DNA of 64,000 nt, taken from NCBI GenBank assembly GCA_036525555.1, contig DATDAD010000030.1:12212-76211 (forward strand). The letters run 5' to 3'. This document shows positions 23,542 to 48,562 of this stretch, piece after piece. Numbering within the stretch: position 1 is the first letter of the stretch; each line of letters opens with the position of its first letter. Source of the stretch: Nitrosopumilus sp. (lineage in GTDB: Archaea; Thermoproteota; Nitrososphaeria; Nitrososphaerales; Nitrosopumilaceae). The notes beneath the pieces were generated by a model. The model was not told the DNA's origin. It did no database searches and worked only from the letters and a program-made list of their open reading frames with translations. A program made the translations under genes and the position numbers.

Positions 23542-23557
23542 GTCCCAAAATTGGAAA
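23542..23557. promoter_or_regulatory. Palindromic operator candidate, site 1
   Basis: GTCCCA AAAT TGGAAA. Confidence 0.5.
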
Positions 23558-23567
23558 CTAAATACAT

Positions 23568-23933
23568 CTATGATTGAATTATTTTGAGAATTTTTTTTGG
23601 CAATGTGCCATAATCAGTGTCAGGTTCTGATACGACATATAAAATATCATCATTAATTACCACACTTATTGCAAGTGCACGTTCACGAGAGGCCATTGCA
23701 AAATTTACAGGTCCAAGTTGTTTATCAAATTCTTTTCTCATTTTAACACGGAGTGCAAGTTCCATGAAAATCATTTCATCATCTTTTTCACTTTCTAGAG
23801 GCTCAACATTTTCTTTCATACCACCTGCAACTAAACGCCCACGTTCGTTGATTACTCCTACAAATCTAATTTTAGGATCAATTGTAAATACCGAATTACA
23901 AATTTTTGAATAATCATAAATTTTAGCAGACAA
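23568..23933 (-). CDS. Roadblock/profilin-like thaumarchaeal protein (DUF6659-like)
   Basis: IDPKIRFVGVINERGRLVAGG...MELALRVKMRKEFDKQLGPVNF. Confidence 0.75.
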   Translation of the reverse strand: MSAKIYDYSKICNSVFTIDPKIRFVGVINERGRLVAGGMKENVEPLESEKDDEMIFMELALRVKMRKEFDKQLGPVNFAMASRERALAISVVINDDILYVVSEPDTDYGTLPKKILKIIQS

Positions 23934-23995
23934 ATTACTAAGTGAACGTAAAATTCACTCATTTATTATCTTTATACAAGTTTTTGAGGCTACAA

Positions 23996-25096
23996 TTATG
24001 AAGTGAGTTTCTTTACTAGTGCAAGAAAATCATCTTCAGATAATGGATGAATTTTCATGATTTCAAGATTTTCAGATACATGTTCAGTAGATTTCTGACC
24101 AACTAAAGGAGCCAAAACACCAGGAGTAGAACGAATGAATTGTAAAGCACGTAATGATGGTTTCAAATCATGGAATTCAGGCATTACACCAGGCTGTAGT
24201 AACCGTCCTTGCATGAAAGGAACACTGGTAAACACCCCAATTCCCAATCTAACTGCAGATTCTAAAATGGATACATGTTCAGTTCCAATTAATTGATTTT
24301 TTGCAAGTAAAGCCTGATCATAATTCATGTTGTATGGTAATTGAATAAATCTGAAACCATGATTTTCTCCACCCACTTCTTTTGCCATATTGACTGTCTC
24401 TTCAAGAGATAGATACTGAGGATTATCAGGTTCGACTCTAAAACATTCCCATGTTGCCATTCCATAAAATTTGATTTTTCCTTCTTTTCGTTTTTGTTCA
24501 TATAATTTGAAAACAGATTTTAAATTTTCTAAAAATTTTTCTTTTGACACATCTTTTATTTGGCCTTCAACAGCGTTATGGAGATACATTAAATCAATGC
24601 ATTCTAGATTAAGATTTTTCAAGCTCCTATCTAACTGATCTGAAAGGTAAGGAATAGTCATACAATGATACCCAGAAGTGACATCGCCCTCTTGGATTAC
24701 ACCATTCTTGGAATATTCTTCTTTTACATATTCCCAAAAATCTAATTTGACATCAGCATCATTTGTAAGATACCCATTTTTTGAACTAATGAAAATTTGG
24801 TTTCGTGTAATTTTACCGTCTTCAATTAACTCTGAAATTGCCTTTCCTACTGAACGCTCTGCTTTTTGGGAACGATAATTGATTGCAGTGTCTATAACAT
24901 TTACCCCAGATAAAATAGATTGTTTTACTGCATTTGTAACTAATTCATCAGTTTTTGCATCTGCATCTCCCAGATATGTTCCAATACCAACATTTGAAAG
25001 GTAAAGACTTTCAAAATTCTTAAAATTGTCTTGATTTGCACCTGAATCTACAATAAATTTTTGTGTCCCATCAGAGCTTGCACAGCCTAAAATCAT
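23996..25096 (-). CDS. Aldo/keto reductase
   Basis: GIGTY, IDTAINY, SSKNG, IDLMYLHN, QLPYN. Confidence 0.92.
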   Translation of the reverse strand: MILGCASSDGTQKFIVDSGANQDNFKNFESLYLSNVGIGTYLGDADAKTDELVTNAVKQSILSGVNVIDTAINYRSQKAERSVGKAISELIEDGKITRNQIFISSKNGYLTNDADVKLDFWEYVKEEYSKNGVIQEGDVTSGYHCMTIPYLSDQLDRSLKNLNLECIDLMYLHNAVEGQIKDVSKEKFLENLKSVFKLYEQKRKEGKIKFYGMATWECFRVEPDNPQYLSLEETVNMAKEVGGENHGFRFIQLPYNMNYDQALLAKNQLIGTEHVSILESAVRLGIGVFTSVPFMQGRLLQPGVMPEFHDLKPSLRALQFIRSTPGVLAPLVGQKSTEHVSENLEIMKIHPLSEDDFLALVKKLTS

Positions 25097-25134
25097 ATTA
25101 TTTGTAATTAGTTACTAAATTTATGTTTAAAGCA

Positions 25135-26019
25135 TCATATAGGAATTAAAAATCCAATGACAAATAGTGCTCCAGTGAGTCTACTAAACATCAGAGTCGA
25201 TGACATGTATGGAACAAGATTATCAATTGAATCATAATTTTTCTGTAAACCAAAACCAGATTTTATCATCAATGGAATTCCAAATAGACTAATCAGAGAG
25301 AGCGCAGGAAACAGATTTGTGGCAACACCAATAATTATCACAGAATAAGATATCAGAGGGAAAATCCAAAATAATTTTGCACCCTTTTGTTTACCAGCAG
25401 CAATTACCAAAGTCTTTCGACCTTTGGATTTATCAGCATCATGATCAGGGAAAGATGCGATAAAAAGAACTAACGAGGATAAAGAGCCTACAACAATTCC
25501 TGCAAGAATTGATTCAATCGAAATTTGTCCAGACTGAATGAAAAAAGTTCCAATGACAATCATCGAACCCTTTACTGCAACAAAGAATTCACCTAAACCA
25601 GAATCGACAATTTTTGTAGAATAAAAATAGATAGATAGAATTGCAAATGCCAAAATAATTGCTATAGTTATTCCATCGGTGATTACAAAAAACCCTCCAA
25701 TAACAGTACCCAAAATTAGAAATGCAATTCCTGCACGATAAACAGAAGAAGGTTTGAGTAATCCTTCAGGTAATACACCAGTTCCACCACTCATTTTTGT
25801 TCTTTTTGTTTTAGTATCAATACCTCTTTTGAAATCCCAAAAATCATTTAGTAAATCAACACTTGCATGGAGGGCCATGACACCTGCAAAAGTCAAAACT
25901 GCATCAAATACATCGAAGGAAGAATTTTGCCACCAATTTAGCGATAGTCCAACTGAAACAGCAATTACAGATGCAAGTAGAAATCTTACACGTATTACAC
26001 GAAACCATACTGATAGCAT
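25135..26019 (-). CDS. UbiA-family prenyltransferase (MenA-like)
   Basis: DLLNDFWDFKRGID, FPDHDADKSKGRKTL; multiple TM segments. Confidence 0.9.
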   Translation of the reverse strand: MLSVWFRVIRVRFLLASVIAVSVGLSLNWWQNSSFDVFDAVLTFAGVMALHASVDLLNDFWDFKRGIDTKTKRTKMSGGTGVLPEGLLKPSSVYRAGIAFLILGTVIGGFFVITDGITIAIILAFAILSIYFYSTKIVDSGLGEFFVAVKGSMIVIGTFFIQSGQISIESILAGIVVGSLSSLVLFIASFPDHDADKSKGRKTLVIAAGKQKGAKLFWIFPLISYSVIIIGVATNLFPALSLISLFGIPLMIKSGFGLQKNYDSIDNLVPYMSSTLMFSRLTGALFVIGFLIPI

Positions 26020-26102
26020 AGTGATTCTAGTGATTTTTCAGTATAATATTCATGAGTTTAAGAGCAGAATTTGTATATATCAAAATGAAATAAAAAATTG
26101 AT

Positions 26103-26309
26103 TTGATAATAGGGAAGATTTCAGAAAACGATAAAAAAATAGAGATACAGGTAGATATTCACTGTACAAATTGTCGCAAAAAGGTTCCAGGAGGACTAAA
26201 AACAGGCGAGAAATTTTCAAGAACAAATCAATTCAAAGTAGAATTAGAAGAATTTAGGAAAAAATATCTTTGTGGAATTTGTAGAGATAAAAAAAGAGTC
26301 AAAAAATAA
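26103..26309 (+). CDS. Small Zn-binding protein
   Basis: CTNC...CGIC. Confidence 0.65.
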   Translation: MIIGKISENDKKIEIQVDIHCTNCRKKVPGGLKTGEKFSRTNQFKVELEEFRKKYLCGICRDKKRVKK

Positions 26310-26312: not shown

Positions 26313-29036
26313 TTATAGTTCTTCTTCCTCTTCCCATTCCTCTTCCAAATCTGTTTTAGATTTTCTCAAGAACATAAAGACCACAATACCTACTAGTAAA
26401 ATTCCCCCTATTACGATATAGACAATCCATTCAGGCAATTCCAAATCTATTGAGTCAAATATTTTATCCGGAGCATCTACGTTGACAGTAAAAGAATCCT
26501 TGCCTTCCGCATACCCTTCGGCAGTTGCAATAATTTCAAATGAAATATCAGGTCCCTTTAATGCAGTTAAGCTCACAATGGCACTACCATCAGAATTGGT
26601 TCTTACAACATCAGGTGTGATTAATGCTTCTTCTTCATTAACAATTATTTTGATTGATGCACCAGATACAGAATCTGCATTTTCATCATCAACGAATAAT
26701 TTAAATTCAATTTGTTCATCTACAGGAATTTCATTATCTAAACCACCAGTGAAAATTTTGAGTTGAGTTTGAGATGAAGCAGAATTAAAGGATAATGATG
26801 TTCCATTAACTCCCTTTGCACTTGCAGAAATTATTGCGTCTCCAACAAAACCAGTTGTCTTGATTGAAAATGGAGCATATGATGAACCTGCTGGTATAAC
26901 TGCATCGTCAATGATTTGTGCAATTGTATCTTTTGAGGATACAATTTTAGATTTAACATCAAATTTAGGAATAACTGGATTTCCTTGCAAATCCACTAAT
27001 TGAATTATACCGATATTTTGCTGATGATCAGCATTCATTTTGTCTACAGGCAAAAAGACTTGAAGTTGTGAAGTCGGATGAGTTGTGAATATTTTGTTAC
27101 TCTCCAAACTCAAATTAGCATTTTCTCCGATAGGTTCCACAGTAAGCAAAAGTACGGTCTCATCAGTAGGAGTGTCAAAAGAATCACTTCTTAATTGAGT
27201 AAAAGTAAATGTTGTTCCTTTTTCAATTTCAACTAACCCATTAGTAGGCGTAATCAAATATTTCCCGGACTCCTTCATTACTTTTGGACGTTCTTTTGCA
27301 TCAAGTGAAATTAGAAATATATCAAAAAAGCCATCACGATCAAAAATGATATTATCCTTTCCGGTTGGAGAAAATAATAGTACTTCTTTTTGTTCTAATG
27401 TGTTAACAACCTCACTAGTAAATGAACCAGTACCTACACCGTTAACAGATGCAGAAATTTTCACGGGGCCGATTTGTTGACCGGTGGAGACAGTAGCTGT
27501 ACCATAAGAGTAAGAACTGACAATTTTTCCGCCATTATCAATTCTTGCTATTTTCTCATTACTGGAAATCACATTAATTTTTTGGACAAACCCATCAGAA
27601 TATTGATTATCATTTGATTGTACAGGATATAATTCACCTTCGTCTAGACAATCAATACTGTACAAAATAATATCATCAGGATCTAATTCAGTATTATGAG
27701 TTATTTCGTCAGAATCAGTCCCACTAGAATCGTCATCGGATTGCTCAAGGCAGTTAGGATGAATTTTGATTTCAGTTCCATCTGGTCGAAATCCATCATC
27801 ATCTTCATCATCTTCAATTAAAGATAACTGATATGTAAAAAATGCTGTTGCATTACTAGGGATTTTATCTAAACCGAAAACTTTCACAGTTGCATCATAA
27901 TCTTTTTCATCAAAATTATAATCTGTTGAGCGCTGATTTTGATCTAACTCTATAGATTTACCCACAGTGCGAAAAGTATCAGTTGCAGTGCCATACCCTA
28001 CGGAGCTAACTCCAATCAAGATATCATTTTTTAATAAATTTTGCAGGCTATATTTTTGTTGAAGTAAAAATCCAAATTGATTTTTTTTAATCATAGGCTT
28101 TTCTGATTGTGAAATTTTATCTAGATTTTCACCAATTGGGTATTGCTCATTTGAGAAAAAATCAAGAGGGATATCATGAGGCGTTTTTGTAGGATTACCG
28201 TCAGAATCAACTACACTGACAAAAATATCTAAAGTTCTATCAAATTCAGCAGGAATCAATTTTGGAAAGATAGATAATTTTAACGAAGTTGGGAGTGTAG
28301 ATGAAATCTGAATACTTTTGGCCACATCAAGGCCTGAATCCGTATGAATTGCACGAATGAAGGTATTTCCAACTTTCTCATGTGCATATATCGTACCCCA
28401 TGTGTAATAATCTCCTTTTTTTATGGTCAATATTTGAGAATCAGTTGTAGCAAGCTGTTCATCATACTCCAATACAATGTCAATATCATTGGGTGCACGA
28501 ACTATAACACCGTCATCGGTTTTAAGAAATATTGTAAATGGCATTTCAGAATTCACATGCATTTTGTTTGTTGGGAGATTTAATTCCAAAATTAAGTCAT
28601 CTGGAAGATATGTTTCATCTGTGCCAATCTCAATTTTTTGAAATGTGGTTTTTCCATCAAGATTTGCAGTAATTGTTGTTGAACCTGATTTATCACTGGT
28701 TGCTATAGGAAATGTTGCATATTCCTCATTTGCTTTTAGAATGATTTTATTTGGAACAGAAGCAATTGTTGAATCATCAGAACTTAAACTAATAGGAACA
28801 TCATATGTGGATGTAATTGGAACCCCGTGTTTGCTTAAAACAAAAACATATCCTACATCATGTTGTGCAATTCCACTTTCTAAATGAGATGGAGAAATAG
28901 ATAATTTAATAGAATAATCAGATAGAGCATCTAGATTTTGAGCATCGACAGAATGTAAATTAGGTCCAAAAAGAATAGTTATGGCAAGTAAGAAGAGGAT
29001 TGGTTTTTTTGTGTTCATTTTTTCTCCATTTTTCAT
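26313..29036 (-). CDS. Large secreted, membrane-anchored surface protein with repeated Ig-like modules
   Basis: N-terminal signal peptide, beta-rich repeats, C-terminal TM and acidic tail. Confidence 0.85.
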   Translation of the reverse strand: MKNGEKMNTKKPILFLLAITILFGPNLHSVDAQNLDALSDYSIKLSISPSHLESGIAQHDVGYVFVLSKHGVPITSTYDVPISLSSDDSTIASVPNKIILKANEEYATFPIATSDKSGSTTITANLDGKTTFQKIEIGTDETYLPDDLILELNLPTNKMHVNSEMPFTIFLKTDDGVIVRAPNDIDIVLEYDEQLATTDSQILTIKKGDYYTWGTIYAHEKVGNTFIRAIHTDSGLDVAKSIQISSTLPTSLKLSIFPKLIPAEFDRTLDIFVSVVDSDGNPTKTPHDIPLDFFSNEQYPIGENLDKISQSEKPMIKKNQFGFLLQQKYSLQNLLKNDILIGVSSVGYGTATDTFRTVGKSIELDQNQRSTDYNFDEKDYDATVKVFGLDKIPSNATAFFTYQLSLIEDDEDDDGFRPDGTEIKIHPNCLEQSDDDSSGTDSDEITHNTELDPDDIILYSIDCLDEGELYPVQSNDNQYSDGFVQKINVISSNEKIARIDNGGKIVSSYSYGTATVSTGQQIGPVKISASVNGVGTGSFTSEVVNTLEQKEVLLFSPTGKDNIIFDRDGFFDIFLISLDAKERPKVMKESGKYLITPTNGLVEIEKGTTFTFTQLRSDSFDTPTDETVLLLTVEPIGENANLSLESNKIFTTHPTSQLQVFLPVDKMNADHQQNIGIIQLVDLQGNPVIPKFDVKSKIVSSKDTIAQIIDDAVIPAGSSYAPFSIKTTGFVGDAIISASAKGVNGTSLSFNSASSQTQLKIFTGGLDNEIPVDEQIEFKLFVDDENADSVSGASIKIIVNEEEALITPDVVRTNSDGSAIVSLTALKGPDISFEIIATAEGYAEGKDSFTVNVDAPDKIFDSIDLELPEWIVYIVIGGILLVGIVVFMFLRKSKTDLEEEWEEEEEL

Positions 29037-29078
29037 TTTTTACTCCGTTTTTTTTCATAAAAAGGAAAAAGGGTGGAG

Positions 29079-29666
29079 TTATCCACTTTGTTGACCAGCT
29101 ATAACAGTTCCAACGAAGACAGCACCGTTTGCGGTTGTTAGCTTGAACTGTGTGTCTCTACCAGACTTGATGTTTTCATCAAGTGTTGCTAGAATTGTTA
29201 CTTGTTGACCAGGTTGAATTTCTGCAGTTGTAGAAGTCAAGATAGTGCCAGGTCCTCTTGTAAGAACTTGGAAATCACCAGGAGCTGGAGATGAACTAGT
29301 GTAATTGTACACAGTACCACCTATTCTTACCTCACTTAGGGTGAGTTTACCTACACTGTTACTTTGTAGATATACTGCTATATCTTCACCAACAACTAGA
29401 CCATTTCCAGCAGTATTTCCTGCTGCAAATATAGTACCATCATGGTTTTCAAGAGTAATGCCATCTGAGGCATCATAACCAGTGAATTTTACAGATTCAA
29501 TGTTTGGTGAACCACTGATTTGAGCAGAACTAAAGAATCCTTGTGAGAACACAAAGACAATACTTCCACCAACGACTGCGATTGCTACCAGAAGAAGTGT
29601 TGCTATGACGGGAGCAACTGCTCTTCTTGAAGTCAACTTGTTTTGTTTTGACTGTAGTTTTGTCAT
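29079..29666 (-). CDS. Archaeal type IV pilin (likely major pilin)
   Basis: Class III signal peptide RRA|VAPVIATLLLVAIAVVGG. Confidence 0.9.
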   Translation of the reverse strand: MTKLQSKQNKLTSRRAVAPVIATLLLVAIAVVGGSIVFVFSQGFFSSAQISGSPNIESVKFTGYDASDGITLENHDGTIFAAGNTAGNGLVVGEDIAVYLQSNSVGKLTLSEVRIGGTVYNYTSSSPAPGDFQVLTRGPGTILTSTTAEIQPGQQVTILATLDENIKSGRDTQFKLTTANGAVFVGTVIAGQQSG

Positions 29667-29801
29667 TTCTGAATTTCTTAGAATGAGAAAAGATGTTAAA
29701 GGAATTTGTGTTCAAATTGGACTACAATTAACTAGTTTGTACATATGTTTTATGAAATGAACAAAAAATGAAAAACGAGCCTGTATGATTAAGAAAAAAT
29801 A

Positions 29802-31643
29802 TCACGTAGGACATCCAGTGGATGGGCATACCTGTAAAACTATTTCAGCTATAGGTCCAACTGCAAATTCCCCACTTAGACTATTACCTGTAGCAACACC
29901 ATTTGCAAGTATAGACATCACATACATTTTTGCTTTAGGAACAGATGGAGCTGTAGCTGTGAATTGAATAGTTTTGGCTTCAGTATGATCATTTATGGAT
30001 TCAAGTAAAGTGCCAAAAATCTGTGTTGAACCATCAGGGTATGTGACAGGAGGAGATACATCAAAACCAATTGAACTAACAACGGTTCCAAAATTCCATT
30101 CTTTTGGAATGTTAATAATTAAAGATGTGCCATTCTTGATTCCAAATTCACTATCACTACTCATATCAGCAAGAGTGGCATTAAATAATACTGTACTTCC
30201 TTCCACAACTCCAGTTAATGTACTCATTACATCAGAAGATGCAACTGATTTTGTATCTCTTGCAAGAAAAACATTTGGTAATGCAACTTCACTAGTATGC
30301 ATTGTAGTTCCATAACCTGCTTTTCCATATTGACCAAGGGTTGTAAACACGACAGGTTGAACCAGAATATTTTGAGCATCTTCTGTAGTACCTGCCATAT
30401 TACCGCTGCCAATTCCTACAAGAAATGGGAAAACAGATCTTGGCGCAACTTGAACAGGGTCAACCAAATTTCTCCACATCAGTTGATTACTTTCAGGGCA
30501 AGACCAATTATCAGGAGTAGGAGATATTGTTGCAGGTTTCTCAGGACTTTCTGGAACAGTAATACCTTCACAATTTTTTACAAAAACATCATCTTGAGAA
30601 TTTGCCCTAGGATTGAATACCATCACTACTACTTTGTTTACAAACATTGGCTTATCCGTAGGATTTGCAACATTTACACCCCAAATTGGCCTTGATGTAA
30701 CACCATCATTTTCGTCTCCAACTGCATTAGGCATTACCATGAATATCTGAGGTTTTCCAAACAGTTCATTTGAGATTACAATTTCTCCTCCACCACCACC
30801 CTCTCCAGCTTCTCGTAAGAGAATGGAATCAGATGCAACGTTACTGGATACATCATCAGGTATCTTAAAATCTCCTTTTGCGATAGCTGAAAACACCAAA
30901 TCATTTCCACTGACTCCATCAACTTGATAATCCCAGGAAAACATTACAGATTCTGCAGGTTCCAAATTCACAGAAGATGGAGTATGAGAAGGAGAAGGAG
31001 AAATAAGAAAACCAGAACCAGTTACAGGTTGCATTTCAGGCTGAACATTTTTAATTACAGCATTACCGGTGTTTGTAACAACCATTGCAACAGTGACATT
31101 CTTGCCAAGAACTACATCTGGAGGATCTGTTATTAGTTCAGCACGAAGATCCCCAATAGAAGCACCCACACCGACGACGACCTCATTAATCTTCATCGTT
31201 CCTAGAGATGAAACTACTTTGATATCATATGTATCAGGAGTCATTTTAAGAGGTTGTGTAAAAAGAACATTATTAGTAAAACCTGATGGAACAAATGCAT
31301 CATCATAATTTACATCAAATCGAGTTACAGGTTGATTTGATAATGTTTTGTTAATGATCCAGATACTTGAAATCTCAACTGGGTTTTGGCCCTGATTTTT
31401 AACATTCATGCTTAAAATATTGTCTTCATCAATAGAGGTAGAAACTGCAAATTGTTCTTGTTGTTTTTTTATTTCAATATCAGAGACAATTCTTTGTGTA
31501 GTTACAATATCTGTTTGTGCATCCAAAGCTAAACTCAATACAGAAAAGCCCGCAATCATCAATACTGTAAAAAATAACGCGCCTACAACAGAAGATAATC
31601 CACGTCTTTTTTGTAAATGAAATAAAGTGATTTTATCAATCAT
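29802..31643 (-). CDS. Large minor pilin/adhesin
   Basis: KRRG|LSSVVGALFF; CARDB-like VTVAMVVTNTGN; Gly linker. Confidence 0.85.
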   Translation of the reverse strand: MIDKITLFHLQKRRGLSSVVGALFFTVLMIAGFSVLSLALDAQTDIVTTQRIVSDIEIKKQQEQFAVSTSIDEDNILSMNVKNQGQNPVEISSIWIINKTLSNQPVTRFDVNYDDAFVPSGFTNNVLFTQPLKMTPDTYDIKVVSSLGTMKINEVVVGVGASIGDLRAELITDPPDVVLGKNVTVAMVVTNTGNAVIKNVQPEMQPVTGSGFLISPSPSHTPSSVNLEPAESVMFSWDYQVDGVSGNDLVFSAIAKGDFKIPDDVSSNVASDSILLREAGEGGGGGEIVISNELFGKPQIFMVMPNAVGDENDGVTSRPIWGVNVANPTDKPMFVNKVVVMVFNPRANSQDDVFVKNCEGITVPESPEKPATISPTPDNWSCPESNQLMWRNLVDPVQVAPRSVFPFLVGIGSGNMAGTTEDAQNILVQPVVFTTLGQYGKAGYGTTMHTSEVALPNVFLARDTKSVASSDVMSTLTGVVEGSTVLFNATLADMSSDSEFGIKNGTSLIINIPKEWNFGTVVSSIGFDVSPPVTYPDGSTQIFGTLLESINDHTEAKTIQFTATAPSVPKAKMYVMSILANGVATGNSLSGEFAVGPIAEIVLQVCPSTGCPT

Positions 31644-32380: not shown

Positions 32381-32387
32381 TTTAGCT

Positions 32388-35887: not shown

Positions 35888-35889
35888 TT

Positions 35890-36813: not shown

Positions 36814-36817
36814 TAAA

Positions 36818-37896: not shown

Positions 37897-37912
37897 TTAC
37901 CAAAAATGGGAA
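37897..37912. promoter_or_regulatory. Palindromic operator candidate, site 2, abutting a TATA-like TTATAAAT
   Basis: TTACCA AAAA TGGGAA. Confidence 0.5.
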
Positions 37913-37997: not shown

Positions 37998-38843
37998 ATG
38001 ATTTCATATCAAGAACAAGTAAGCGGAATTGCATCGGAACTAGAAGATATTTTGGATTTGGATGATTTGGAAGCCAAAGTTTATCTTAATTTACTAAGGG
38101 CAGGTCCAATTACAGCAAGTGCCCTAGCAAAAGAACTTGATATAGACAGAGCAAGAATGTATAGAACTGTAGACAAGCTAGTCAGCAGAAATATTATTTC
38201 TACAACATTATCCAGTCCCAAATTATGCATTGCCGCAGATCCTCATGATGCATTAAAAATCGCACTAGGGAAAAAAGAAGACGAAGTAAACAAAATTAAA
38301 AAGTCAGGCGAGGCAATTATTGATAAAATCAACAATGAAATTAGTACAAATCAAAACAGCACAGTACCAACATTCAGAGTGGTCCAAGGGCGTCAGAATA
38401 TTTATGCAGATATTTCACATGTAATTGAAAATTCTACGGGAGTTATCTACATCGCTACAACCCTAGATGATGTTTCAAGAATGTATCACAGCACAATACC
38501 TGAAAAAATCACTCTCTGTGAAAAGAATGGTGGCAAAGTGAGATTGCTTGTAGACATGGATGATCCTAAACTTGCACCTTTTGTTAAAAGATTTAACGCT
38601 ACTGAAACTAGGATTGGAAAGCTTCCATCTAAAGGAAGAATAGTAGTTCAGCAAGAAAAAAAAATGATCATGTCAGATTCTGCAGCATCATTCAAAAACT
38701 CAAATTCAGACTCTGATTTTTCACTATGTACAAACTCATCAGAGATGGTAGATAATATTTTCACACTATGTACATTTTTGTGGGATACATCAAAGCCATT
38801 AAAAACATTAGATGTTAAAAATTTTGTAAAGAAATCGAAGTAG
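37998..38843 (+). CDS. TrmB-family regulator
   Basis: LEAKVYLNLLRAGPITASALAKELDIDRARMYRTVDKL; VVQGRQNIY. Confidence 0.9.
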   Translation: MISYQEQVSGIASELEDILDLDDLEAKVYLNLLRAGPITASALAKELDIDRARMYRTVDKLVSRNIISTTLSSPKLCIAADPHDALKIALGKKEDEVNKIKKSGEAIIDKINNEISTNQNSTVPTFRVVQGRQNIYADISHVIENSTGVIYIATTLDDVSRMYHSTIPEKITLCEKNGGKVRLLVDMDDPKLAPFVKRFNATETRIGKLPSKGRIVVQQEKKMIMSDSAASFKNSNSDSDFSLCTNSSEMVDNIFTLCTFLWDTSKPLKTLDVKNFVKKSK

Positions 38844-38919
38844 AAAATACGAAAATACAGCATTAACACTTTCATATATTTTCGAGCCTAACATTTTAGA
38901 AATCGTTAAAAGGGACTAA

Positions 38920-38935
38920 TTCCCAAAATTGGAAA
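38920..38935. promoter_or_regulatory. Palindromic operator candidate, site 3, overlapping the start codon
   Basis: TTCCCA AAAT TGGAAA; the last A is the A of the ATG at 38935. Confidence 0.5.
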
Positions 38936-39432
38936 TGGCTATTGAAATCTACGACGAAAACAAACTAAGAGACATACCAGAAGCCCAAAGGATTTCCATA
39001 TGTGAACGCATCATAAAAAATGATAGTGATGAGTCAAAACGATGGGATGCAGTTTGGCTTATTGGAGAACTAGCTGAAAACAGAGATCCAGAAGATCCAA
39101 TGTTCGTAAAATCTGCAGATTTGATGGAGTGGGTATTGAAAAATGATGACAATGGAGTAGTCAAACATGAAGCATGTTATCAGATTGCTGGAAGAAACAT
39201 GAGAACAAAGATCCCGGCTCTAGTAGAATCGGCATTAAATGATAAAAGTATTCTCACAAAACACGAGGCAATTGAATCCCTTGGCCTGATGAGAGCATTT
39301 GATGCAATTGATTTGATCAGAGATGCCGAAATTGATCCAAGTATTGATGTTAGAGAAACGGCAAGATTCGTAATCAAAAGATTACAAAGATTGCAAAATC
39401 AAGGCGAATACAAACCAGCTGAGATTCTCTAA
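38935..39432 (+). CDS. HEAT-repeat protein resembling one half of deoxyhypusine hydroxylase
   Basis: VVKHEACYQI and LTKHEAIESLG 32 aa apart; IPALVES; DPSIDVRETARFVIKRL. Confidence 0.75.
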   Translation: MAIEIYDENKLRDIPEAQRISICERIIKNDSDESKRWDAVWLIGELAENRDPEDPMFVKSADLMEWVLKNDDNGVVKHEACYQIAGRNMRTKIPALVESALNDKSILTKHEAIESLGLMRAFDAIDLIRDAEIDPSIDVRETARFVIKRLQRLQNQGEYKPAEIL

Positions 39433-39449
39433 TCAAGAAATCTTTAAAA

Positions 39450-39893: not shown

Positions 39894-39946
39894 TTAGAGT
39901 AAGATTATTTGCATATAATATTAGATTACCTTTTTCAAATTATTTA

Positions 39947-40792: not shown

Positions 40793-40882
40793 AATTTTAT
40801 TTCAAATTAGAGGGATAAACCTATAGCTTGTCAGAAAAAAACACACAGAAAATTAATTTTTTAAACAAAAAATATTTTCAAA

Positions 40883-41503
40883 CTAGGAACTGATTTGAAC
40901 GGTCTGTAAAATAGAACTTTCAGACAGCAATGAATTTTTTAGCTGGACCTTTACTTCAACATCATTTTTTATAATATCGACCTTAACATTTTCAAAAATA
41001 GTCTCATATTTTTTTACTTTTTTACCATCATGAGATAATTCAAATCCATTAGATACCAACAAGCCATTGTTAATAAGATAATTAATTTTTCTGTACCCAG
41101 ATGTTTGTGGAATTCTACATGAGTCTAAAATTTTTGCAATTATTAAAGACTCAGACATAACAGACCCAAGAATTGCTTTTTTATCTTGATCAGCAAAAGA
41201 TTCTAAAAATATTCTAGCCAGCTCAGGATCTTTCATTTGAATCCAATTGGAATCGGTTTGTCTTGATTTTTCAATGCCAACAATTTTTTGCAAGAATTTT
41301 TGTTCTAATCCATCAGCACCTGCACCAAAAAATTCTCTTAGAACACTATCAAATTTATGGAAATTTTTGATTGCCTGAACTAATCCAAGACCATGTCTTT
41401 CCATTAGTCTTTCTTCAATTTTATTCAAAGTATCTTTACCAAGATTTTCCTCAATTGATTTCCTTAAAGAAGGAACTAAGAGAGTATCCAATCCATTTTC
41501 CAT
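40883..41503 (-). CDS. wHTH regulator with helical N-terminal domain (paralog of 47386..47997)
   Basis: IPQTSGYRKINYLINNGLL. Confidence 0.8.
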   Translation of the reverse strand: MENGLDTLLVPSLRKSIEENLGKDTLNKIEERLMERHGLGLVQAIKNFHKFDSVLREFFGAGADGLEQKFLQKIVGIEKSRQTDSNWIQMKDPELARIFLESFADQDKKAILGSVMSESLIIAKILDSCRIPQTSGYRKINYLINNGLLVSNGFELSHDGKKVKKYETIFENVKVDIIKNDVEVKVQLKNSLLSESSILQTVQISS

Positions 41504-41757
41504 AATTGGATATGTAAAGACATCATAATAAACAATGTGACATTATTTTTTATGACAAACAGTTTACTTGACACAAAGAGATCGATCAGGATTCCAAAAA
41601 CGACAATAAATTGATCGGCAAATATTACAAATTCATGCAATGTAATTATTTGTACAATGTTGTATGTGTGGAAAATAACATACTAATCCATATGACTAAA
41701 AATACTCTAAGAATATTGTAAAATGGACCAATTAGCGACAAAGGGAGATGAGCAACT

Positions 41758-42312
41758 TTGACTTTACAGGAAAAGCAATTATTGAAAAAAACAGACAATG
41801 TTTCAATAAGAATTGATTCTGAATTAAGCCAGAAGCTGCATGAAAAATGTTTAGAGCAAAAAATTAGTCTCAATACTCTCATCAATCATTTGCTAGATAA
41901 GCAGGTGAATTGGAATGAACTAACAACAGAGATGGGATGGGTTCCTATGTTTAGATCAACATTAAGAGAAATCACTGATTCGATACCTAAAGAAAAAATA
42001 GAAAAAATTGCAGAGACGACAGGTACATCAGATCTGAAAAATTCATTAAATTACGTTTATGGATATATCGAACTAGATTCTATCTTAGATTTATTCAAGA
42101 AGAGATGTCAAAGTATGAATGTTCAATACAGAGAAATGGAAGTGAACGGAAAGAACAAAATTATCATTCAACATGATTTAGGAAAAAATTGGCCATATTT
42201 CATTGTGGGTCAAATGAATACAATTCTAAATGAAATAGGACACAGGGTAGTCAATGAAGAATACAATAAACAAGGATTTTCCTTTGAGATCGTCAAAACG
42301 GATGAAATCTAG
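41758..42312 (+). CDS. Ribbon-helix-helix (HicB/Arc-like) protein with C-terminal alpha/beta domain
   Basis: VSIRIDSELSQKLHEKCLEQKISLNTLINHLL. Confidence 0.75.
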   Translation: MTLQEKQLLKKTDNVSIRIDSELSQKLHEKCLEQKISLNTLINHLLDKQVNWNELTTEMGWVPMFRSTLREITDSIPKEKIEKIAETTGTSDLKNSLNYVYGYIELDSILDLFKKRCQSMNVQYREMEVNGKNKIIIQHDLGKNWPYFIVGQMNTILNEIGHRVVNEEYNKQGFSFEIVKTDEI

Positions 42313-42376
42313 TAATATCGGAAATCGTGCCTAAATTTCCAAAAAATTAAAGATACTGCTATTAAGGATAATCTCA

Positions 42377-42392
42377 TTTCCAAAAATGGTAA
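42377..42392. promoter_or_regulatory. Palindromic operator candidate, site 4
   Basis: TTTCCA AAAA TGGTAA, 3 nt before the DMT start. Confidence 0.5.
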
Positions 42393-42395
42393 TGA

Positions 42396-43463
42396 ATGAT
42401 TTCTGAGAGGATTTCCTTAAAAAAATCAAAGTATGGATATTATTTAATTATTCTAGCGGCAGCATTATCTGCACTTATTCATGTAATTTCAAAACCAATG
42501 CTGGAAAATTCAGAAAACATGCTTGAAATCAATCCAATCGTTTTAGCATTTTTGATTTATTTCATTGCAGGTATTTTCTTTACGCCAGTTGCAAAAAAAA
42601 CACATTCAATTTCCAAATTTGGGAAAAAGGATTGGACGTTCATGGGACTAATAGGCATAGCAGAAGTGTCTGCATTAATTACCTACTTTTATGGGCTATC
42701 TACAGCATCTGCAGTAAATGCATCAATTTTCAGCAATAGTGAGATAATTTTTGCACTAGTAATTGCAATGTTAGTGTTTAAAGAAAGATTACGAATCAAA
42801 GAATCAATCCCATTCACAATGATCATCATCGGTATGATGGTTATACCAGTTGGAAATGATCTTCTCCAGAACAATTTCAATTTAGGGCACTTGGTTACAG
42901 GAGATTTGTTAATAATTTTGTCAGGAGTTTTGTATGCTGTGGACATCACACTGTGTAAATATATCGGAGACAGATTTGATACAAAAAGAGTCACACAAGT
43001 ACTATCATTTATTTCTGCAGGAGTTGCAATATCCCTAATTGCAGCATTTCAAATTCCCATGAATGTTGATTTAGCACAATTGCCAGGAATAATCACCTTA
43101 TCAGTATTCGGCACAGGTCTATCCACATTATTTTTCCTAGTGGCGCTAAAAATTATTGGAACTGTCAGAACAGTTTTGCTATATTCCACAACTGCAGTGT
43201 TTGGAGTGATTTTTTCAGGATTGTTCCTATCAGAAACAATTGGCACCACAGATATTTTGTCATTAGCGTTGGTATTCACGGGAATATTTTTGCTTAGAAA
43301 CAAACTAGCTGGAAAAGAAGATGAGGATGAAAATAATGCAATTACGCCAAATTCCACACCCAAAAGAAAATCAGGAAAACACGTTAGACAAATGCAAAAA
43401 ATATCATTTGAAAAGAGAGTTAAAAATGAAATTGCATTGCAAGGCTGGATAAGTGCAGGCTAA
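42396..43463 (+). CDS. EamA/DMT-family transporter
   Basis: Two 5-TM repeats; NASIFSNSEIIF; GDLLIILSG. Confidence 0.9.
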   Translation: MISERISLKKSKYGYYLIILAAALSALIHVISKPMLENSENMLEINPIVLAFLIYFIAGIFFTPVAKKTHSISKFGKKDWTFMGLIGIAEVSALITYFYGLSTASAVNASIFSNSEIIFALVIAMLVFKERLRIKESIPFTMIIIGMMVIPVGNDLLQNNFNLGHLVTGDLLIILSGVLYAVDITLCKYIGDRFDTKRVTQVLSFISAGVAISLIAAFQIPMNVDLAQLPGIITLSVFGTGLSTLFFLVALKIIGTVRTVLLYSTTAVFGVIFSGLFLSETIGTTDILSLALVFTGIFLLRNKLAGKEDEDENNAITPNSTPKRKSGKHVRQMQKISFEKRVKNEIALQGWISAG

Positions 43464-43651
43464 ATTCTTATTTCAAAAATTGAAAATAACTGTGACTGGG
43501 AAAAAAGTAAAATAAAACTTAGATTAATTTTCAGAAAAATTACAAAAAATAGGCACAAAAATAGAGCAAATTTTGGAATGTAGTGATTTGTAGCTAAATG
43601 TATACGATTGAACGATCAGACTTTTAAAAGAAAAATCGATCATTACCATTA

Positions 43652-44500
43652 ATGGAAATTGCTTCAAGGACTATGCAGTTAGGCACATACCCAGTAGATA
43701 AGGACAATTTTGAAGAAATTCGAGATGCACTAGTTTCATTTGGATTAACACCAAACCAAAGCAAGGTATTTTTTTATCTAGGCAAGATAGGTGCAAAAAC
43801 AGCATCAGATATTGCAAAGGCGGTTAACATCCCAAGAAGTGAGACATACCACTTACTAACGGCCTTGCAAAACAAAGGTATCGTAGAAGCATCATTTCAG
43901 CATCCAATTCAATTTACAGCTTTGAGTATCAAAAACGCAGTAAATCTCCTTATTAGTACTGAAACTGAGCGTCTAAACAAACTCAAAAAGGCAGGTCCGG
44001 AATTAGAAGAAATCTGGGAAAAAATTCCAGGAGCCACACTCAATGATGAGGAGGAGGGAGAAGAGAAATTCAAAGTATTGCAGGGAGGCAATCAAGTGAA
44101 TAGTAAAATTTTTGATATGATTCTTAATGCCAAAAAAGAGTGCAGAGTTTTAGGATCAGAAAAAGATTTCATCAAATTTTATCATGCAAACTTTCTAGAT
44201 GCATTAGAAGAACAAAAAATAGATTACAAATTATTGACATCAATTACAAAAAAATCAAAGGGGATTTTTGATGACATAGATAAAACAAAAATTAAAAAAC
44301 TTTGTTCATCAGTAAAAGAAAACTTGTGCTTTTTGATAAAGGATGATGACGAAGTATTATTCTTTATTAAAAATGAGGGAAACAATAAAGAGATGAGAGC
44401 CATATGGACAAACTCTGAAACAATAATCTATTCCAAAGCATTGTTGTTCAATAGCATATGGTCAAAAACAGAATTAGGCGGAGATGTATTCATTGAGTAA
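43652..44500 (+). CDS. TrmB-family regulator
   Basis: FGLTPNQSKVFFYL...IPRSETYHLLTALQNKGIV. Confidence 0.9.
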   Translation: MEIASRTMQLGTYPVDKDNFEEIRDALVSFGLTPNQSKVFFYLGKIGAKTASDIAKAVNIPRSETYHLLTALQNKGIVEASFQHPIQFTALSIKNAVNLLISTETERLNKLKKAGPELEEIWEKIPGATLNDEEEGEEKFKVLQGGNQVNSKIFDMILNAKKECRVLGSEKDFIKFYHANFLDALEEQKIDYKLLTSITKKSKGIFDDIDKTKIKKLCSSVKENLCFLIKDDDEVLFFIKNEGNNKEMRAIWTNSETIIYSKALLFNSIWSKTELGGDVFIE

Positions 44501-45464: not shown

Positions 45465-45859
45465 TAGAATTCAAACAAAATGAAATTGATTTTCTAAATT
45501 CATTAGAGGAAGCAAGAATTGCAACATCACATAATGATATTCCACATGTTAAGCCAGTTTCATTTGTAAAAATCAACAGCAGCATAATCATTGCGACAGA
45601 TTATGATACACGAACATATGCCAATATTAAATTTAATCCTAATGTGGGAATCGTTATTGATATTTACAAGTCTGGTAGTCATAAAGCAATATGCATCCAA
45701 GGTAAGGCAGAAATCATTGAAAACGGAGAAGAGTTTAAAAAAATCTATCAAATATTCTTCAAAAAATTTCAATGGGTGAGGGATGATCCATGGTATGAAA
45801 ATGATGCCCCTTTTTTGAAGATAATGCCCACCGCAAAAATTAGTTGGGGCCTAGATTAA
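45461..45859 (+). CDS. Pyridoxamine 5'-phosphate oxidase-like (split barrel, FMN/F420-binding) protein
   Basis: ARIAT...PHVKPV...NIKFNPNVGIVID...IQGKAEII. Confidence 0.85.
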   Translation: MIEFKQNEIDFLNSLEEARIATSHNDIPHVKPVSFVKINSSIIIATDYDTRTYANIKFNPNVGIVIDIYKSGSHKAICIQGKAEIIENGEEFKKIYQIFFKKFQWVRDDPWYENDAPFLKIMPTAKISWGLD

Positions 45860-46221
45860 AAGGCTATTTCAGGTTCTACTTGTGAAAGCAATGATTGAAC
45901 AGAGATAGGTTTTCTTAAAACAGAACGGATTCCCAAATTTAATAATTCTTGTTCCTGTATAGAGCTCATCGCGAGTCCACTTACAATTACAACTTTAGAT
46001 AGTTCTGAGGGTTTTCTTGATTTTAAATCTAAAAGAAAATCAACACCGCTATACTTTGGCATACACATGTCAAGCAAAATTAGATCATATTCTTTGTAAA
46101 TTGCTAACTCCAATCCAGCTCGCCCATCCAATATACTATCAAAATCATAATTTTTGCTAGATAAAATATCTGCAAAGATTTTACTTATTTCAGGAGTGTC
46201 CTCCACATGAAGTATTTTCAT
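45856..46221 (-). CDS. Stand-alone response regulator receiver
   Basis: KILHVED, DLILLDMCMPKYSG, VVIVSG, KP. Confidence 0.9.
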   Translation of the reverse strand: MKILHVEDTPEISKIFADILSSKNYDFDSILDGRAGLELAIYKEYDLILLDMCMPKYSGVDFLLDLKSRKPSELSKVVIVSGLAMSSIQEQELLNLGIRSVLRKPISVQSLLSQVEPEIAF

Positions 46222-46373
46222 ATAATATGAAACATTTCTACAATTGATAAAAACAAGTTTGCTCATTTGAACAAACTATGAGATTTAAAATTAAAATCTG
46301 AATTGAATTTCAATAGATCTCATCATTTCAAAACCAGGATTACAAAACAATATCAGTAGAATTTGTCAAAATC

Positions 46374-46577
46374 CTATTCAGAATATTCATTTTTCTGAAT
46401 CATTTTACAATCTTTAATCCAATTTTGGACATCAATGACAATGCTAGATTGTAAGGATTTTGTATGAAACCAGCAAAGTTCATCATTTGAAAGACAATTT
46501 TGGCAACTGGTAATTTCTTCTAATGATCTAGATATTTCGGATTGAGTAAACGGGTTTTTATCAAATTGATATTTCAA
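46374..46577 (-). CDS. Small Cys/His hypothetical protein
   Basis: CQNC...CWFH. Confidence 0.55.
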   Translation of the reverse strand: MKYQFDKNPFTQSEISRSLEEITSCQNCLSNDELCWFHTKSLQSSIVIDVQNWIKDCKMIQKNEYSE

Positions 46578-46646
46578 TGATTATATAGTAACATTCTAAC
46601 ATTTATGAAAATGTAATTTAACATGAAGACATACATTTTTCACAAT

Positions 46647-46662
46647 TTCCCAAAAATGGGAT
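46647..46662. promoter_or_regulatory. Palindromic operator candidate, site 5, in a divergent promoter region
   Basis: TTCCCA AAAA TGGGAT. Confidence 0.55.
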
Positions 46663-46735
46663 TGATTAATAAGATAATCATATAAAGTATGAATTTATGA
46701 GCAAAGTTATGTCAGATAGCAGAGCAGGTAGATAA

Positions 46736-47344
46736 ATGATCAATTGCATAGTCATTGATGATGATCAAGATATCTTAGATTTGATGTGTGAATTTTTAGA
46801 CATTATCAAAGTTGATGTCATAGCAAAGGGGAACGACGGTAAGGATGCAGTTGAATTGTATAAAAAACATACACCAGATATTGTGTTTACAGATATGTCA
46901 ATGCCTAACTATGATGGACTCTATGCCATAGAAAATATAAAAGATGAAAATCAAAATGCAAAAATAATTGCTGTGACAGCGAACCCAGTTGAAAAAAATA
47001 AATATTTTTTTGACTTACTAAGAATACCAATAATACACAAACCATTTAACATGAACATGTTAAAACAAGTTTTAGAGAAAATTTCTTCAACAGATACAGA
47101 ATCCATAATGCCATTTGAAATCAAATACAAATTCAAAGAAGATCATAATTTTTACACATGCGTGGTAAACTATGAGCAATATAGGAATTTTAAAAAATTG
47201 CCAATCATATGTGAATGTGAAATAGTAGAAAACAATCAAAAAAATATTAAATTAAAAAAAGAGGAAATCGAAAAAGCTTTGAATTTGGCTGTAAAAAAAG
47301 ACACCAGCCATATTCGTAAATTATCAAAAATAGTGACGAATTGA
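46736..47344 (+). CDS. Response regulator with small C-terminal output domain
   Basis: IVIDDD, DIVFTDMSMPNYDG, IAVTA, HKP plus about 80 aa extension. Confidence 0.88.
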   Translation: MINCIVIDDDQDILDLMCEFLDIIKVDVIAKGNDGKDAVELYKKHTPDIVFTDMSMPNYDGLYAIENIKDENQNAKIIAVTANPVEKNKYFFDLLRIPIIHKPFNMNMLKQVLEKISSTDTESIMPFEIKYKFKEDHNFYTCVVNYEQYRNFKKLPIICECEIVENNQKNIKLKKEEIEKALNLAVKKDTSHIRKLSKIVTN

Positions 47345-47385
47345 GATAACAGATAAGAATAACAGAGTATCAATAAAAGAGAGTT

Positions 47386-47997
47386 ATGACAGAAATAGAC
47401 CAATTATTTGCATCAGCACTTGAAAAAATAATACAAGAGAATCTTGGGGATGTGACATTTCAAAGCATACAAAATAGATTATTTGAAAAATATGGCATGT
47501 CAATTACAGAGTCAATTAAAGACTTTGAAAAATTAGATTCAGTTTTATCAGAATTTTTTGGTTCTGGCGCAAAAGGTCTGGAAGAGAGATTTTTAGGCAG
47601 TATTTGTAGCATTAAATCAGATAAAGACAAAGTTCAAAAAAGATTCACAATATCAAATTCATCAATTAATCAATCAATCATCAAAGCATTCAGTGATGAC
47701 GAAATGTCAAAAATCCTTAATGCTTCAATTGGAGATCCATGGACCATTTCAGAAATTTTAGAGAAATTAGATATTCCCAAGACATCGGGATATAGAAAAA
47801 TCAATTTGTTGATAAAAGAAGGATTATTGATCAGGATGGGACAGGAGTTAACAGAAAATAGACGAATCATACACAAATACAAATCATTATTTGACAATGT
47901 AAATATCGATTTTAATAACAAAGTCACAGTTAGTGTTCAATTTACACCAGAAGTTGTTTTGAACAGTTCAATTCTCCAGGCAGTATATAATAGATAA
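47386..47997 (+). CDS. wHTH regulator (paralog of 40883..41503)
   Basis: IPKTSGYRKINLLIKEGLL. Confidence 0.8.
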   Translation: MTEIDQLFASALEKIIQENLGDVTFQSIQNRLFEKYGMSITESIKDFEKLDSVLSEFFGSGAKGLEERFLGSICSIKSDKDKVQKRFTISNSSINQSIIKAFSDDEMSKILNASIGDPWTISEILEKLDIPKTSGYRKINLLIKEGLLIRMGQELTENRRIIHKYKSLFDNVNIDFNNKVTVSVQFTPEVVLNSSILQAVYNR

Positions 47998-48017
47998 ATT
48001 TTCAAAATAAAACTAAA

Positions 48018-48161
48018 TTATTTTAAACCTTTTTCGAGGACCTCATTTATGATTCTTGAAAAACTGACAGTGGATGAGGATTCTTTAATTTTTTTTGCCT
48101 GTAATGCTCGCAATTTTTTTGCAATATCGGTATTTAGCATGATTGTCAGTCTTTCTGCCAT
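48018..48161 (-). CDS. 47-aa ribbon-helix-helix-like microprotein (not in ORF track)
   Basis: MAERLTIMLNTDIAKKLRALQAKKIKESSSTVSFSRIINEVLEKGLK. Confidence 0.75.
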   Translation of the reverse strand: MAERLTIMLNTDIAKKLRALQAKKIKESSSTVSFSRIINEVLEKGLK

Positions 48162-48368
48162 AATATTTGATAAATGTAGTTTTAGTTATTTACATACAGA
48201 TCCAGATCATTTACAAAAATGCCAATTTGTGTTGAATATTCCCATTTGTGGAAACATTGTAAAAACATTCAATCTGATTTTTTTGTGAGTACAGAAGATC
48301 TTAATTTGATTACACTCTCTAGAGGGTTTTAAACCAGGCAATGTTTTTTATTCTGTTTACCCAGTAAT

Positions 48369-48467
48369 TTATTTTTCAGATTTATGAATTGTTCTGATAT
48401 GCCTGCGCAGGTGACCTTCTCCTGCAAGATGCTGTTTACAGTATTGGCATAAAATTCTTTCACTCAT
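48369..48467 (-). CDS. 32-aa stand-alone C2H2 zinc finger (not in ORF track)
   Basis: MSERILCQYCKQHLAGEGHLRRHIRTIHKSEK matches C-x2-C-x12-H-x4-H. Confidence 0.65.
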   Translation of the reverse strand: MSERILCQYCKQHLAGEGHLRRHIRTIHKSEK

Positions 48468-48546
48468 TTCTTAAACTCATACTTTATGTTAAAATCATAT
48501 ATTAGAACATACGTAAATCATGAACAAGACATACAATAAAATGAAT

Positions 48547-48562
48547 TTCCCATTTTTGGAAA
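48547..48562. promoter_or_regulatory. Palindromic operator candidate, site 6
   Basis: TTCCCA TTTT TGGAAA. Confidence 0.5.

Follow-up and report, generated by a model that had tools for sequence, protein, structure and literature searches.

A palindromic promoter element linked to a family of winged helix-turn-helix genes in Nitrosopumilus and other Nitrosopumilaceae

The stretch of DNA analysed here, henceforth the window, covers 64 kb (C30:12212-76211) of a Nitrosopumilus sp. genome of 1.376 Mb in 44 contigs with 33% GC. It carries repeated copies of a palindrome whose consensus, drawn from 118 distinct sites, is A-TT-Y-CCA-W4-TGG-R-AA-T (16-18 bp; also written ATTYCCA-N4-TGGRAAT). The palindrome is a real, intergenic and positionally conserved element, closely linked to one family of winged helix-turn-helix (wHTH) genes across genera. 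A preliminary description of the window had listed six 16-mers sharing a CCA-WWWW-TGG core, and a string check found all six (6/6) where they had been placed; three further strong sites, at 42610-42625, 43643-43658 and 41497-41512, had been overlooked, and the weaker matches named at 15954, 21942 and 63342 are unsupported, as they lack the core and score below 9 bits. Site scores given here are bits of a position weight matrix (PWM) trained on the sites of the window.

For footprinting, each intergenic region was aligned with MAFFT against five congeners with syntenic segments of about 75-80% nucleotide identity. As had been proposed as a check, the footprints reveal conservation: 3-5 congeners, at about 77% nucleotide identity, have counterparts of sites 23542, 37897, 38920, 42377, 42610 and 43643 in the same places, with CCA and TGG constant while the W4 spacer, the flanks and position 3 drift. 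The two position classes of the preliminary description, between a TATA-like box and the ATG or upstream of the box, are as described there. A conserved TATA-like box precedes each of sites 38920, 42377 and 43643 by 8-12 nt, and these sites abut or contain the start codon, which would place them on the transcription start of leaderless mRNAs. The first (TTCCCAAAATTGGAAA, 38920..38935, 26.7 bits) falls between the box GTTAAAAGG and the ATG (38935) of a HEAT-repeat protein gene (38935..39432, plus strand; Pfam HEAT_2, 3.1e-10), the final motif base being the A of that ATG; it is kept in congeners G003, G012, G020 and G019, with the same layout in other genera. The second (TTTCCAAAAATGGTAA, 42377..42392, 24.1 bits) falls between the box CTATTAAGG and the ATG (42396) of an EamA/DMT transporter gene (42396..43463, plus strand; Pfam EamA, 7.1e-33) and is kept in all four relatives that hold the locus (G019, G003, G012 and G020) and also in G021. 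The third (TTACCATTAATGGAAA, 43643..43658, 23.3 bits) follows the box CTTTTAAAAG and contains the ATG of a TrmB-family regulator gene, TrmB-2 (43652..44500, plus strand; Pfam TrmB, 1.4e-12); it is kept in G019, G003, G012, G020 and G007.

The EamA coding sequence (CDS) contains a further site (TTTCCAAATTTGGGAA, 42610..42625, 22.7 bits), 233 bp downstream of the promoter site, and the spacing of this pair is constant. At this internal site every ortholog examined uses the Ser codon TCC, which is rare (6.9% of Ser codons), and this suggests selection on the DNA itself. The internal site recurs at about -1125 in many loci of the wHTH family discussed below.

Sites 23542, 37897, 46647 and 48547 lie upstream of TATA-like boxes. 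Site 23542 (GTCCCAAAATTGGAAA, 23542..23557, 20.6 bits) is about 24 nt (centre to centre) upstream of the conserved TATA-like box TTAATTAA of a small minus-strand gene (23304..23516; 70 aa as called, no Pfam match), of which relatives conserve the second ATG, at 23498 (conserved CAT); the site is kept in G019, G003 and G012, with a G spacer base in G012. Site 37897 (TTACCAAAAATGGGAA, 37897..37912, 24.6 bits) stands upstream of a second TrmB-family regulator gene, TrmB-1 (37998..38843, plus strand; Pfam TrmB, 1.1e-13), and of its likely TATA box; it is kept in G019, G003 and G012 and degenerate in G020 and G011. Conserved GAGCCTA(G/A) blocks, separate from the palindrome, were also seen in relatives upstream of TrmB-1 (~37960-37975) and of the HEAT gene (~38878-38886). 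Site 46647 (TTCCCAAAAATGGGAT, 46647..46662, 22.3 bits) precedes a TATAAAG box and lies ~85 nt upstream of a gene for a response regulator with receiver (REC) and NitrOD1 domains (46736..47344, plus strand; Pfam Response_reg 3e-19, NitrOD1 4.6e-13). Site 48547 (TTCCCATTTTTGGAAA, 48547..48562, 24.3 bits) lies upstream of two minus-strand microprotein genes, one for a C2H2 zinc finger of 32 aa (48369..48467) and one for a ribbon-helix-helix (RHH)-like product of 47 aa (48018..48161; MAERLTIMLNTDIAKKLR...), the latter with a weak motif-like site of its own upstream (TTCCCATTTGTGGAAA, 48239..48254, 12.4 bits).

Counts of the core set these sites apart from their background. The window has 11 copies of CCA-W4-TGG; dinucleotide shuffles have 2.23 +/- 1.29 on average, and none of 100 shuffles reached 11 (maximum 6). 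With the spacer lengthened to 5 nt, the half-sites yield a single match for an expectation of 1.41. Genome-wide there are 62 matches; the 124-kb contig has 11, all of which fall inside the window, with 10 in the part from 23.5 to 48.6 kb. Eighteen of the 62 are intergenic, with intergenic DNA making up roughly 11-13% of the genome (the split comes from a crude map of open reading frames (ORFs), 89% coding). For the extended pattern TYCCA-W4-TGGRA, eight matches are intergenic and two coding, a density ratio of ~22, which bears out the intergenic enrichment that the preliminary description had asked a genome scan to look for. A comparable intergenic bias or local clustering was seen neither with spacers of 3, 5 or 6 nt, nor with the inverted order, nor for any of 26 further GC-containing trimer palindromes. 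Strong sites are nearly all intergenic, and the next-ranked PWM sites after the training set (C23:7690, C15:89387 and C36:53959) are intergenic in three of three cases; after these the scores fall and the remaining genome matches are mostly coding. Two further matches in the window, at 46419 and 59959, have the core only and, with low scores, appear to be chance occurrences. Scans for perfect 3-mer and 4-mer palindromes genome-wide did not make CCA-N4-TGG prominent, because the real sites are imperfect and few and a degenerate pattern with a PWM is needed. Raw per-genome counts of TYCCAWWWWTGGRA were dropped as a presence/absence profile; in the large genomes G009 and G021 most matches are coding, amongst them a conserved multicopper-oxidase segment, and locus-based tests were therefore used instead.

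A strict motif match in G021, situated between an EamA ortholog and an ORF of ~200 aa, connects the element with a gene family. This ORF is homologous (32-46% identity) to 40883-41503 and 47386-47997 in the window and to C36:54384-54986, so that this genome has three paralogs, two in the window and the third on contig C36. Paralog A (40883..41503, minus strand, 206 aa) is an arCOG03067-like wHTH regulator with the recognition helix PQTSGYRKIN, and paralog B (47386..47997, plus strand, 203 aa) gives a weak Pfam HTH_20 match (0.0029); both are candidate cognate factors. In a search of 41 genomes, the family was found to be expanded in part of the genus, its full-length members forming three subfamilies (A, B and C) and a fourth, D, at a greater distance. 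Each of the first three has its own arrangement at congener loci: A-type genes adjoin EamA sites or have a site ~70-120 nt upstream, B-type genes follow REC-NitrOD1 and have a site at -729 to -754, and in C-type loci the gene is oriented divergently to a stand-alone REC gene, the site being at -415 to -422. The position of site 46647 relative to the start of paralog B is this B-type position, found in six of eight congener B-type loci and in many GTDB loci.

A site of at least 14 bits within 1.2 kb was found at 7/10 A-type, 6/8 B-type and 5/8 C-type congener loci, against an expectation of ~0.06 sites per locus from two independent background estimates (0.024-0.025 sites/kb), and at none of five D-type loci. 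A, B and C are ancient paralogs, and the association with the motif has been kept at least three times, despite the relatedness of the orthologs within each. In the alignment, the three subfamilies share an invariant recognition-helix segment, P-x-TSGYRKI-N/E; the motif is missing from D (helix GIISENIS) and from two outliers of A with altered helices (KSKGYRTI and KASTYNRI). A motif-like site on the start codon of paralog A itself (TTTCCATAATTGGATA, 41497..41512, 20.8 bits) was rejected as a conserved autoregulatory site, being present in this genome only; relatives conserve just the half-site encoded by the start of the CDS and have a weaker site ~200 nt upstream in its place.

Paralog B has 369 homologs in Nitrosopumilaceae at E<=1e-5, the Nitrosopumilus members being recorded as 'transcriptional regulator', and some close homologs carry a precomputed PF12840 assignment; paralog A has no Pfam match and no sequence match in PDB. 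An AlphaFold2 model built on a 21-sequence alignment (predicted local distance difference test score 90.6, predicted template modelling score 0.84) comprises an N-terminal helical domain (~1-83), a wHTH (~92-167) and a C-terminal beta/helix part. Only the wHTH part finds structural matches with Foldseek, the top ones being HlyU, NolR, SqrR, BigR, PH1932, CadC and Phr, and on this model the family is predicted to have an ArsR-type winged helix-turn-helix fold. The invariant columns of the family alignment include no Cys or His.

The linkage extends well beyond the genus. We considered 80 loci from GTDB species representatives of Nitrosopumilus, Nitrosarchaeum, Nitrosotenuis, Nitrosotalea and other Nitrosopumilaceae, picked via the regulator gene and partly by the peptide pattern TSGYRKINxL, so that the helix is present by construction. 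These hold 133 sites of at least 14 bits in 397 kb, that is 0.33/kb against a background of 0.025/kb, a 13-fold excess. There is a sharp peak of 28 sites in the bin from -100 to -1 relative to the regulator start, and 27 loci have a site 79-92 nt before the start codon, the usual layout being motif, ~40-45 nt, TATA-like box, ~25 nt and regulator ATG. Many regulator promoters of other genera (within L134-L193) have in addition a single TTCCA or TGGAA half-site at -50 to -30, beside the TATA-like box, which may be an auxiliary operator.

Neighbours within 2.5 kb of the regulator gene are a 281-aa membrane protein (47/80 loci), EamA (46/80), REC (39/80), HEAT (35/80) and TrmB (22/80). Sites of at least 15 bits stand directly upstream of EamA in 32 cases, HEAT in 21, REC in 18, the regulator in 17 and TrmB-2 in 11, which makes EamA the most frequent predicted target across genera, with the HEAT gene among the most widely conserved. 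The recurrent predicted targets are hence the EamA transporter, the HEAT-repeat protein, the REC genes, the regulator itself and TrmB-2, joined in this genome by pilin genes. A dimeric-factor site linking the HEAT gene ('DOHH-like' in the preliminary description), the DMT/EamA transporter and the REC genes had been predicted there, and both footprinting and the cross-genus comparison back it. A gene neighbourhood of wHTH, HEAT, EamA, REC and a membrane protein of 258-281 aa (N-terminus PDVVPEKL) is itself conserved in Nitrosopumilaceae (L115-L194; window 38935-43463) and sometimes also holds a SET-domain protein, as annotated by Pfam at 39450-39893 of the window, or a Cys-rich protein of ~170 aa.

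The pilin genes lie on contig C23 (7690-9504 and 24795-27129), where two pilin-like genes with class III signal peptides have the motif directly before their start codons; one is followed by the gene for a 430-aa secreted protein and the other by that for a FlaI/VirB11-like ATPase. The C23 pilin-gene site is kept in both orthologous loci despite a protein identity of 61%. The type IV pilus locus of the window (26313-37735), where Pfam recognises pilus platform genes directly upstream of 37735, has no strong motif site.

None of the five syntenic congeners has, at this locus, the segment at ~46.3-50.5 kb with its sites 46647 and 48547. It spans ~4 kb (46287-50500) and comprises REC-NitrOD1, which is the first gene of a B-type module, paralog B, the RHH and C2H2 microgenes and a gene for a WelO5-like oxygenase (2-oxoglutarate type; 48589-49371, Pfam); congener B-type modules are located elsewhere, and the segment looks like a relocated or inserted module. 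The C2H2 finger had been counted as a member of the regulon, and site 48547 does exist upstream of it; however, the segment occurs at this locus in this genome only and the B-type loci examined have no corresponding site. Sites 46647 and 48547 are both followed, at differing distances (46663-46700, and 48480-48546 on the minus strand), by a shared stretch ATAAAGTATGA(A/G)TTTA, which may represent either a core-promoter element common to both or a duplication. An RHH-like small ORF downstream of a motif site occurs in the B-type module (48018-48161) and also in the C-type module (C36 ~53750-53900, minus strand; MSKRVTIMIDDDLDKKLR...), and this microprotein may be a conserved regulon member.

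Taking these observations together, we consider it rather probable, from sequence comparison, that the palindrome is the operator of the ~200-residue ArsR/HTH_20-type wHTH family (arCOG03067). A homodimer would place one recognition helix (P-x-T-S-G-Y-R-K-I) on each TTYCCA half-site, in successive major grooves ~10 bp apart. The three paralogs probably share the site, because the same recognition helix is kept, and such sharing would make sites pile up around their genes; several paralogous regulators would then take the place of the one single factor of the preliminary description. At promoters with the site between TATA box and leaderless start codon (HEAT, EamA, TrmB-2 and the pilins), binding would block recruitment of RNA polymerase and cause repression. 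At those with the site upstream of the TATA box (REC-NitrOD1, TrmB-1, the 70-aa gene, the microprotein genes and the regulator promoter at about -80), binding may activate, or act cooperatively or from a distance. The adjacent REC proteins may modulate the regulator through a phospho-relay. We infer the binding protein, the sign of regulation, the coupling to REC and the surface or adhesion role.

Several points weigh against assigning the operator to this family. The binomial p values for the A, B and C loci (3e-7, 7e-7 and 3e-5) make the significance look greater than it is, as orthologous loci are not independent, and the 80-locus set, given how it was picked, speaks for linkage and not for the identity of the binder. 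At many of those loci the '-80' motif coincides with the start of a divergently oriented HEAT or REC gene, and it may primarily serve that gene instead of autoregulation. Sites of the upstream class vary in their distance to the TATA box from ~24 to 50 nt. The C-type motif is found in six loci of five TrmB-2-positive genomes and missing in two loci of TrmB-2-negative genomes. Profile matches are below cut-off as well: HTH_20 gives paralog B E=0.0029 and 18 bits against a cut-off of 27, and paralog A none, and the NCBIfam Sta1/Lrs14 models score the window wHTH proteins at 26.9 and 18.9 bits against cut-offs of 80 and 90.

As linkage by itself cannot name a binder, the factor could be encoded outside the neighbourhood, or be another protein such as a small Lrs14-like wHTH, the RHH microprotein or a 184-aa RHH-domain protein, with the wHTH family just a frequent regulon member. 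Small wHTH proteins occur in all genomes, RHH microgenes follow sites in B and C modules, and the 184-aa RHH-domain protein is present in 18/80 loci. We nevertheless hold this to be improbable: no other DNA-binding gene is consistently found within 2.5 kb (TrmB 22/80 and the 184-aa RHH protein 18/80), loci such as L186 have three strong sites and no other regulator nearby, and the correlation between helix and motif within the wHTH family is hard to explain by an outside binder. Amongst the three candidates of the preliminary description (TrmB, the wHTH paralogs or an RHH protein), the wHTH paralogs are strongly favoured, RHH proteins not being consistently present and TrmB being disfavoured by the distribution of its orthologs.

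That distribution bears on the possibility, which we regard as quite unlikely, that a local TrmB protein binds the motif, most plausibly TrmB-2 as an autorepressor, and that the wHTH genes are mere targets. The start codon of TrmB-2 is overlapped by a site conserved in six genomes, a site lies upstream of TrmB-1 in four genomes, the C-type module sites are confined to TrmB-2-positive genomes, and TrmB relatives are known to use palindromes in a dual repressor/activator mode. However, TrmB-1 orthologs occur in just 5/24 congeners and TrmB-2 orthologs in about 8, and the two proteins are only ~25% identical. Genomes G021, G024 and G015 are without both TrmBs and yet have sites adjoining the wHTH gene; strong sites at wHTH loci are likewise found in two Nitrosotenuis genomes, where the TrmB-2 matches are at best 23-25% identical, and in one Nitrosarchaeum genome with no TrmB-2 match at E<=1e-10. 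In G012, a complete genome, the TrmB-2 ortholog is split into two ORFs by an in-frame TGA (G012:C1:662437-663257), and the surrounding motif sites are retained intact. TrmB-1 and TrmB-2 were accordingly rejected as the binder on phyletic grounds; TrmB-2 is likely a target, and TrmB-1 is likely a target rather than a binder.

An element acting at the RNA level (a hairpin, terminator or translational signal) or a recombination or replication site is very improbable. The half-sites could pair as a 6-bp stem with a 4-nt loop, and some sites lie on start codons and one within a CDS; against this, many precede TATA boxes, where transcription is presumably absent, many are imperfect palindromes, they work in both orientations relative to genes and are followed by no consistent T-run. 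Compensatory changes are absent too, the mirrored variable positions of the 118 distinct sites having no covariation (position 3/14, p=0.24), which argues for two half-sites read independently by protein and not for an RNA hairpin. A chance or compositional artefact of AT-rich promoters is refuted by the shuffles, none of which reached the observed count, by the flat spacer and trimer controls and by positions conserved across species and genera, even though perfect 4-mer palindromes are mildly enriched genome-wide (TCCA-N4-TGGA 5 against 1.3, CCCA-N4-TGGG 2 against 0.24) and most strict matches in larger congeners are within CDSs.

The assignment to the wHTH family can be set beside known systems. 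ArsR/SmtB regulators are dimers that bind imperfect palindromes and are often autoregulatory. The wHTH of the model matches members of this group (HlyU, NolR, CadC/CzrA, archaeal PH1932 and Phr, a heat-shock regulator of Pyrococcus) at a Foldseek probability of about 1.0 and a local root mean square deviation of 1.5-3 Å to 1uly, 2cwe, 4g6q and 2p4w. Such regulators usually bind, as homodimers, an inverted-repeat operator at their own promoter; in the 27 loci, an inverted repeat with 10-bp half-site spacing is found at -79 to -92 of the wHTH gene. The family described here differs in having an additional N-terminal helical domain of ~85 residues and a C-terminal beta/helix part without structural match, in its operator sequence and in its HTH_20 score below the Pfam cut-off. 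In dual-position logic, the element resembles the Thermococcales glycolytic motif TATCAC-N5-GTGATA of TrmBL1/Tgr, which represses from downstream of the TATA box and activates from upstream, and whose regulon includes regulator genes. Motif and spacer differ, however, and here the favoured binder is ArsR-like rather than TrmB, with TrmB genes looking like targets. A TrmB-type operator (TATCAC-N5-GTGATA or TACT-N7-8-GAGTA) was rejected, the present motif being TTYCCA-N4-TGGRAA and occurring also in genomes without TrmB-1 and TrmB-2 orthologs.

Two further archaeal regulators deserve mention in view of the pilin promoters with the motif. EarA, the euryarchaeal archaellum activator, is an HTH protein that controls a type IV filament operon from upstream of the B recognition element (BRE) and TATA box, and it recognises a 6-bp TACATA element (PMC10665913). 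An EarA-type activator was rejected, as the pilin promoters here have a palindrome right before the ATG and not TACATA repeats. Lrs14/AbfR proteins of Sulfolobus are small archaeal wHTH regulators of pili, motility and biofilm, and the present model has a Foldseek match to AbfR2 (6cmv). Membership of Lrs14/Sta1 was nonetheless rejected, the scores being far under the cut-offs and the proteins measuring 200-206 aa with extra domains against ~100-130 aa; moreover, Lrs14 genes are not next to their targets (PMC4858521). Makarova et al. (PMC4858521) also noted arCOG03067 genes near archaellin (flaB) genes in euryarchaea, and in N. maritimus Nmar_0453 is listed as arCOG03067, with the neighbouring adhesin genes Nmar_0455-0459 strongly biofilm-induced (PMC12448741).

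The pairing of the family with REC genes has a precedent of its own. Galperin et al. (2018; PMC5847659) reported that some REC-only genes of thaumarchaea form divergent pairs with arCOG03067 (ArsR/HTH_20) genes (Nmar_0452-0453, Nlim_0095-0096 and NSED_08760-08765), leaving open whether the products interact. These pairs represent the same family and pairing as the C-type module on C36; that report gives gene adjacency only, with no operator, regulon, or A- or B-type modules. In thaumarchaea, about three quarters of the response regulators consist of a bare REC domain with no known output. In the present window a stand-alone REC gene also occurs at 45856..46266 (minus strand; Pfam Response_reg, 2.4e-17). 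REC or REC-NitrOD1 and the wHTH are separate adjacent genes, and the Pfam scan found no REC domain in the window wHTH proteins; a classical two-component response regulator was thus rejected, as REC and the DNA-binding domain are not in one polypeptide. The adjacency suggests phospho-relay control of the regulator. More tentatively, and with the odds rather against it, the wHTH proteins may be the DNA-binding halves of 'split' thaumarchaeal response regulators, in which phosphorylated REC or REC-NitrOD1 would set the occupancy of ATTYCCA-N4-TGGRAAT via the N-terminal helical domain and so toggle the regulon (EamA exporter, HEAT protein, membrane protein and pilins/adhesins) between planktonic and surface-attached states. 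If true, this would connect two-component signals in archaea to transcription by a concrete route.

Apart from the element discussed here, this genome (G000) has a strong intergenic excess of GGG-N7-CCC inverted repeats (31 against 1.6 expected; CGGG-N7-CCCG 8 against 0.04), which are probably stems of tRNAs or other structured RNAs.

Ammonia-oxidising archaea rank with the most abundant microbes of oceans and soils, and genetic tools for them are lacking. To our knowledge, almost no transcription factor-operator pair has been defined in these organisms, and no previously described Nitrosopumilus motif or regulon of this kind was found in the literature searched. The present analysis gives an 18-bp predicted operator, a candidate regulator family and a target set conserved over at least four genera. 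The position of the family near biofilm-induced adhesin genes in N. maritimus, together with the pilin promoters in this genome, points to a control of surface attachment. The finding also bears on the question of REC output raised by Galperin et al. (2018), as REC genes are systematically paired with the putative DNA-binding protein of the predicted operator.

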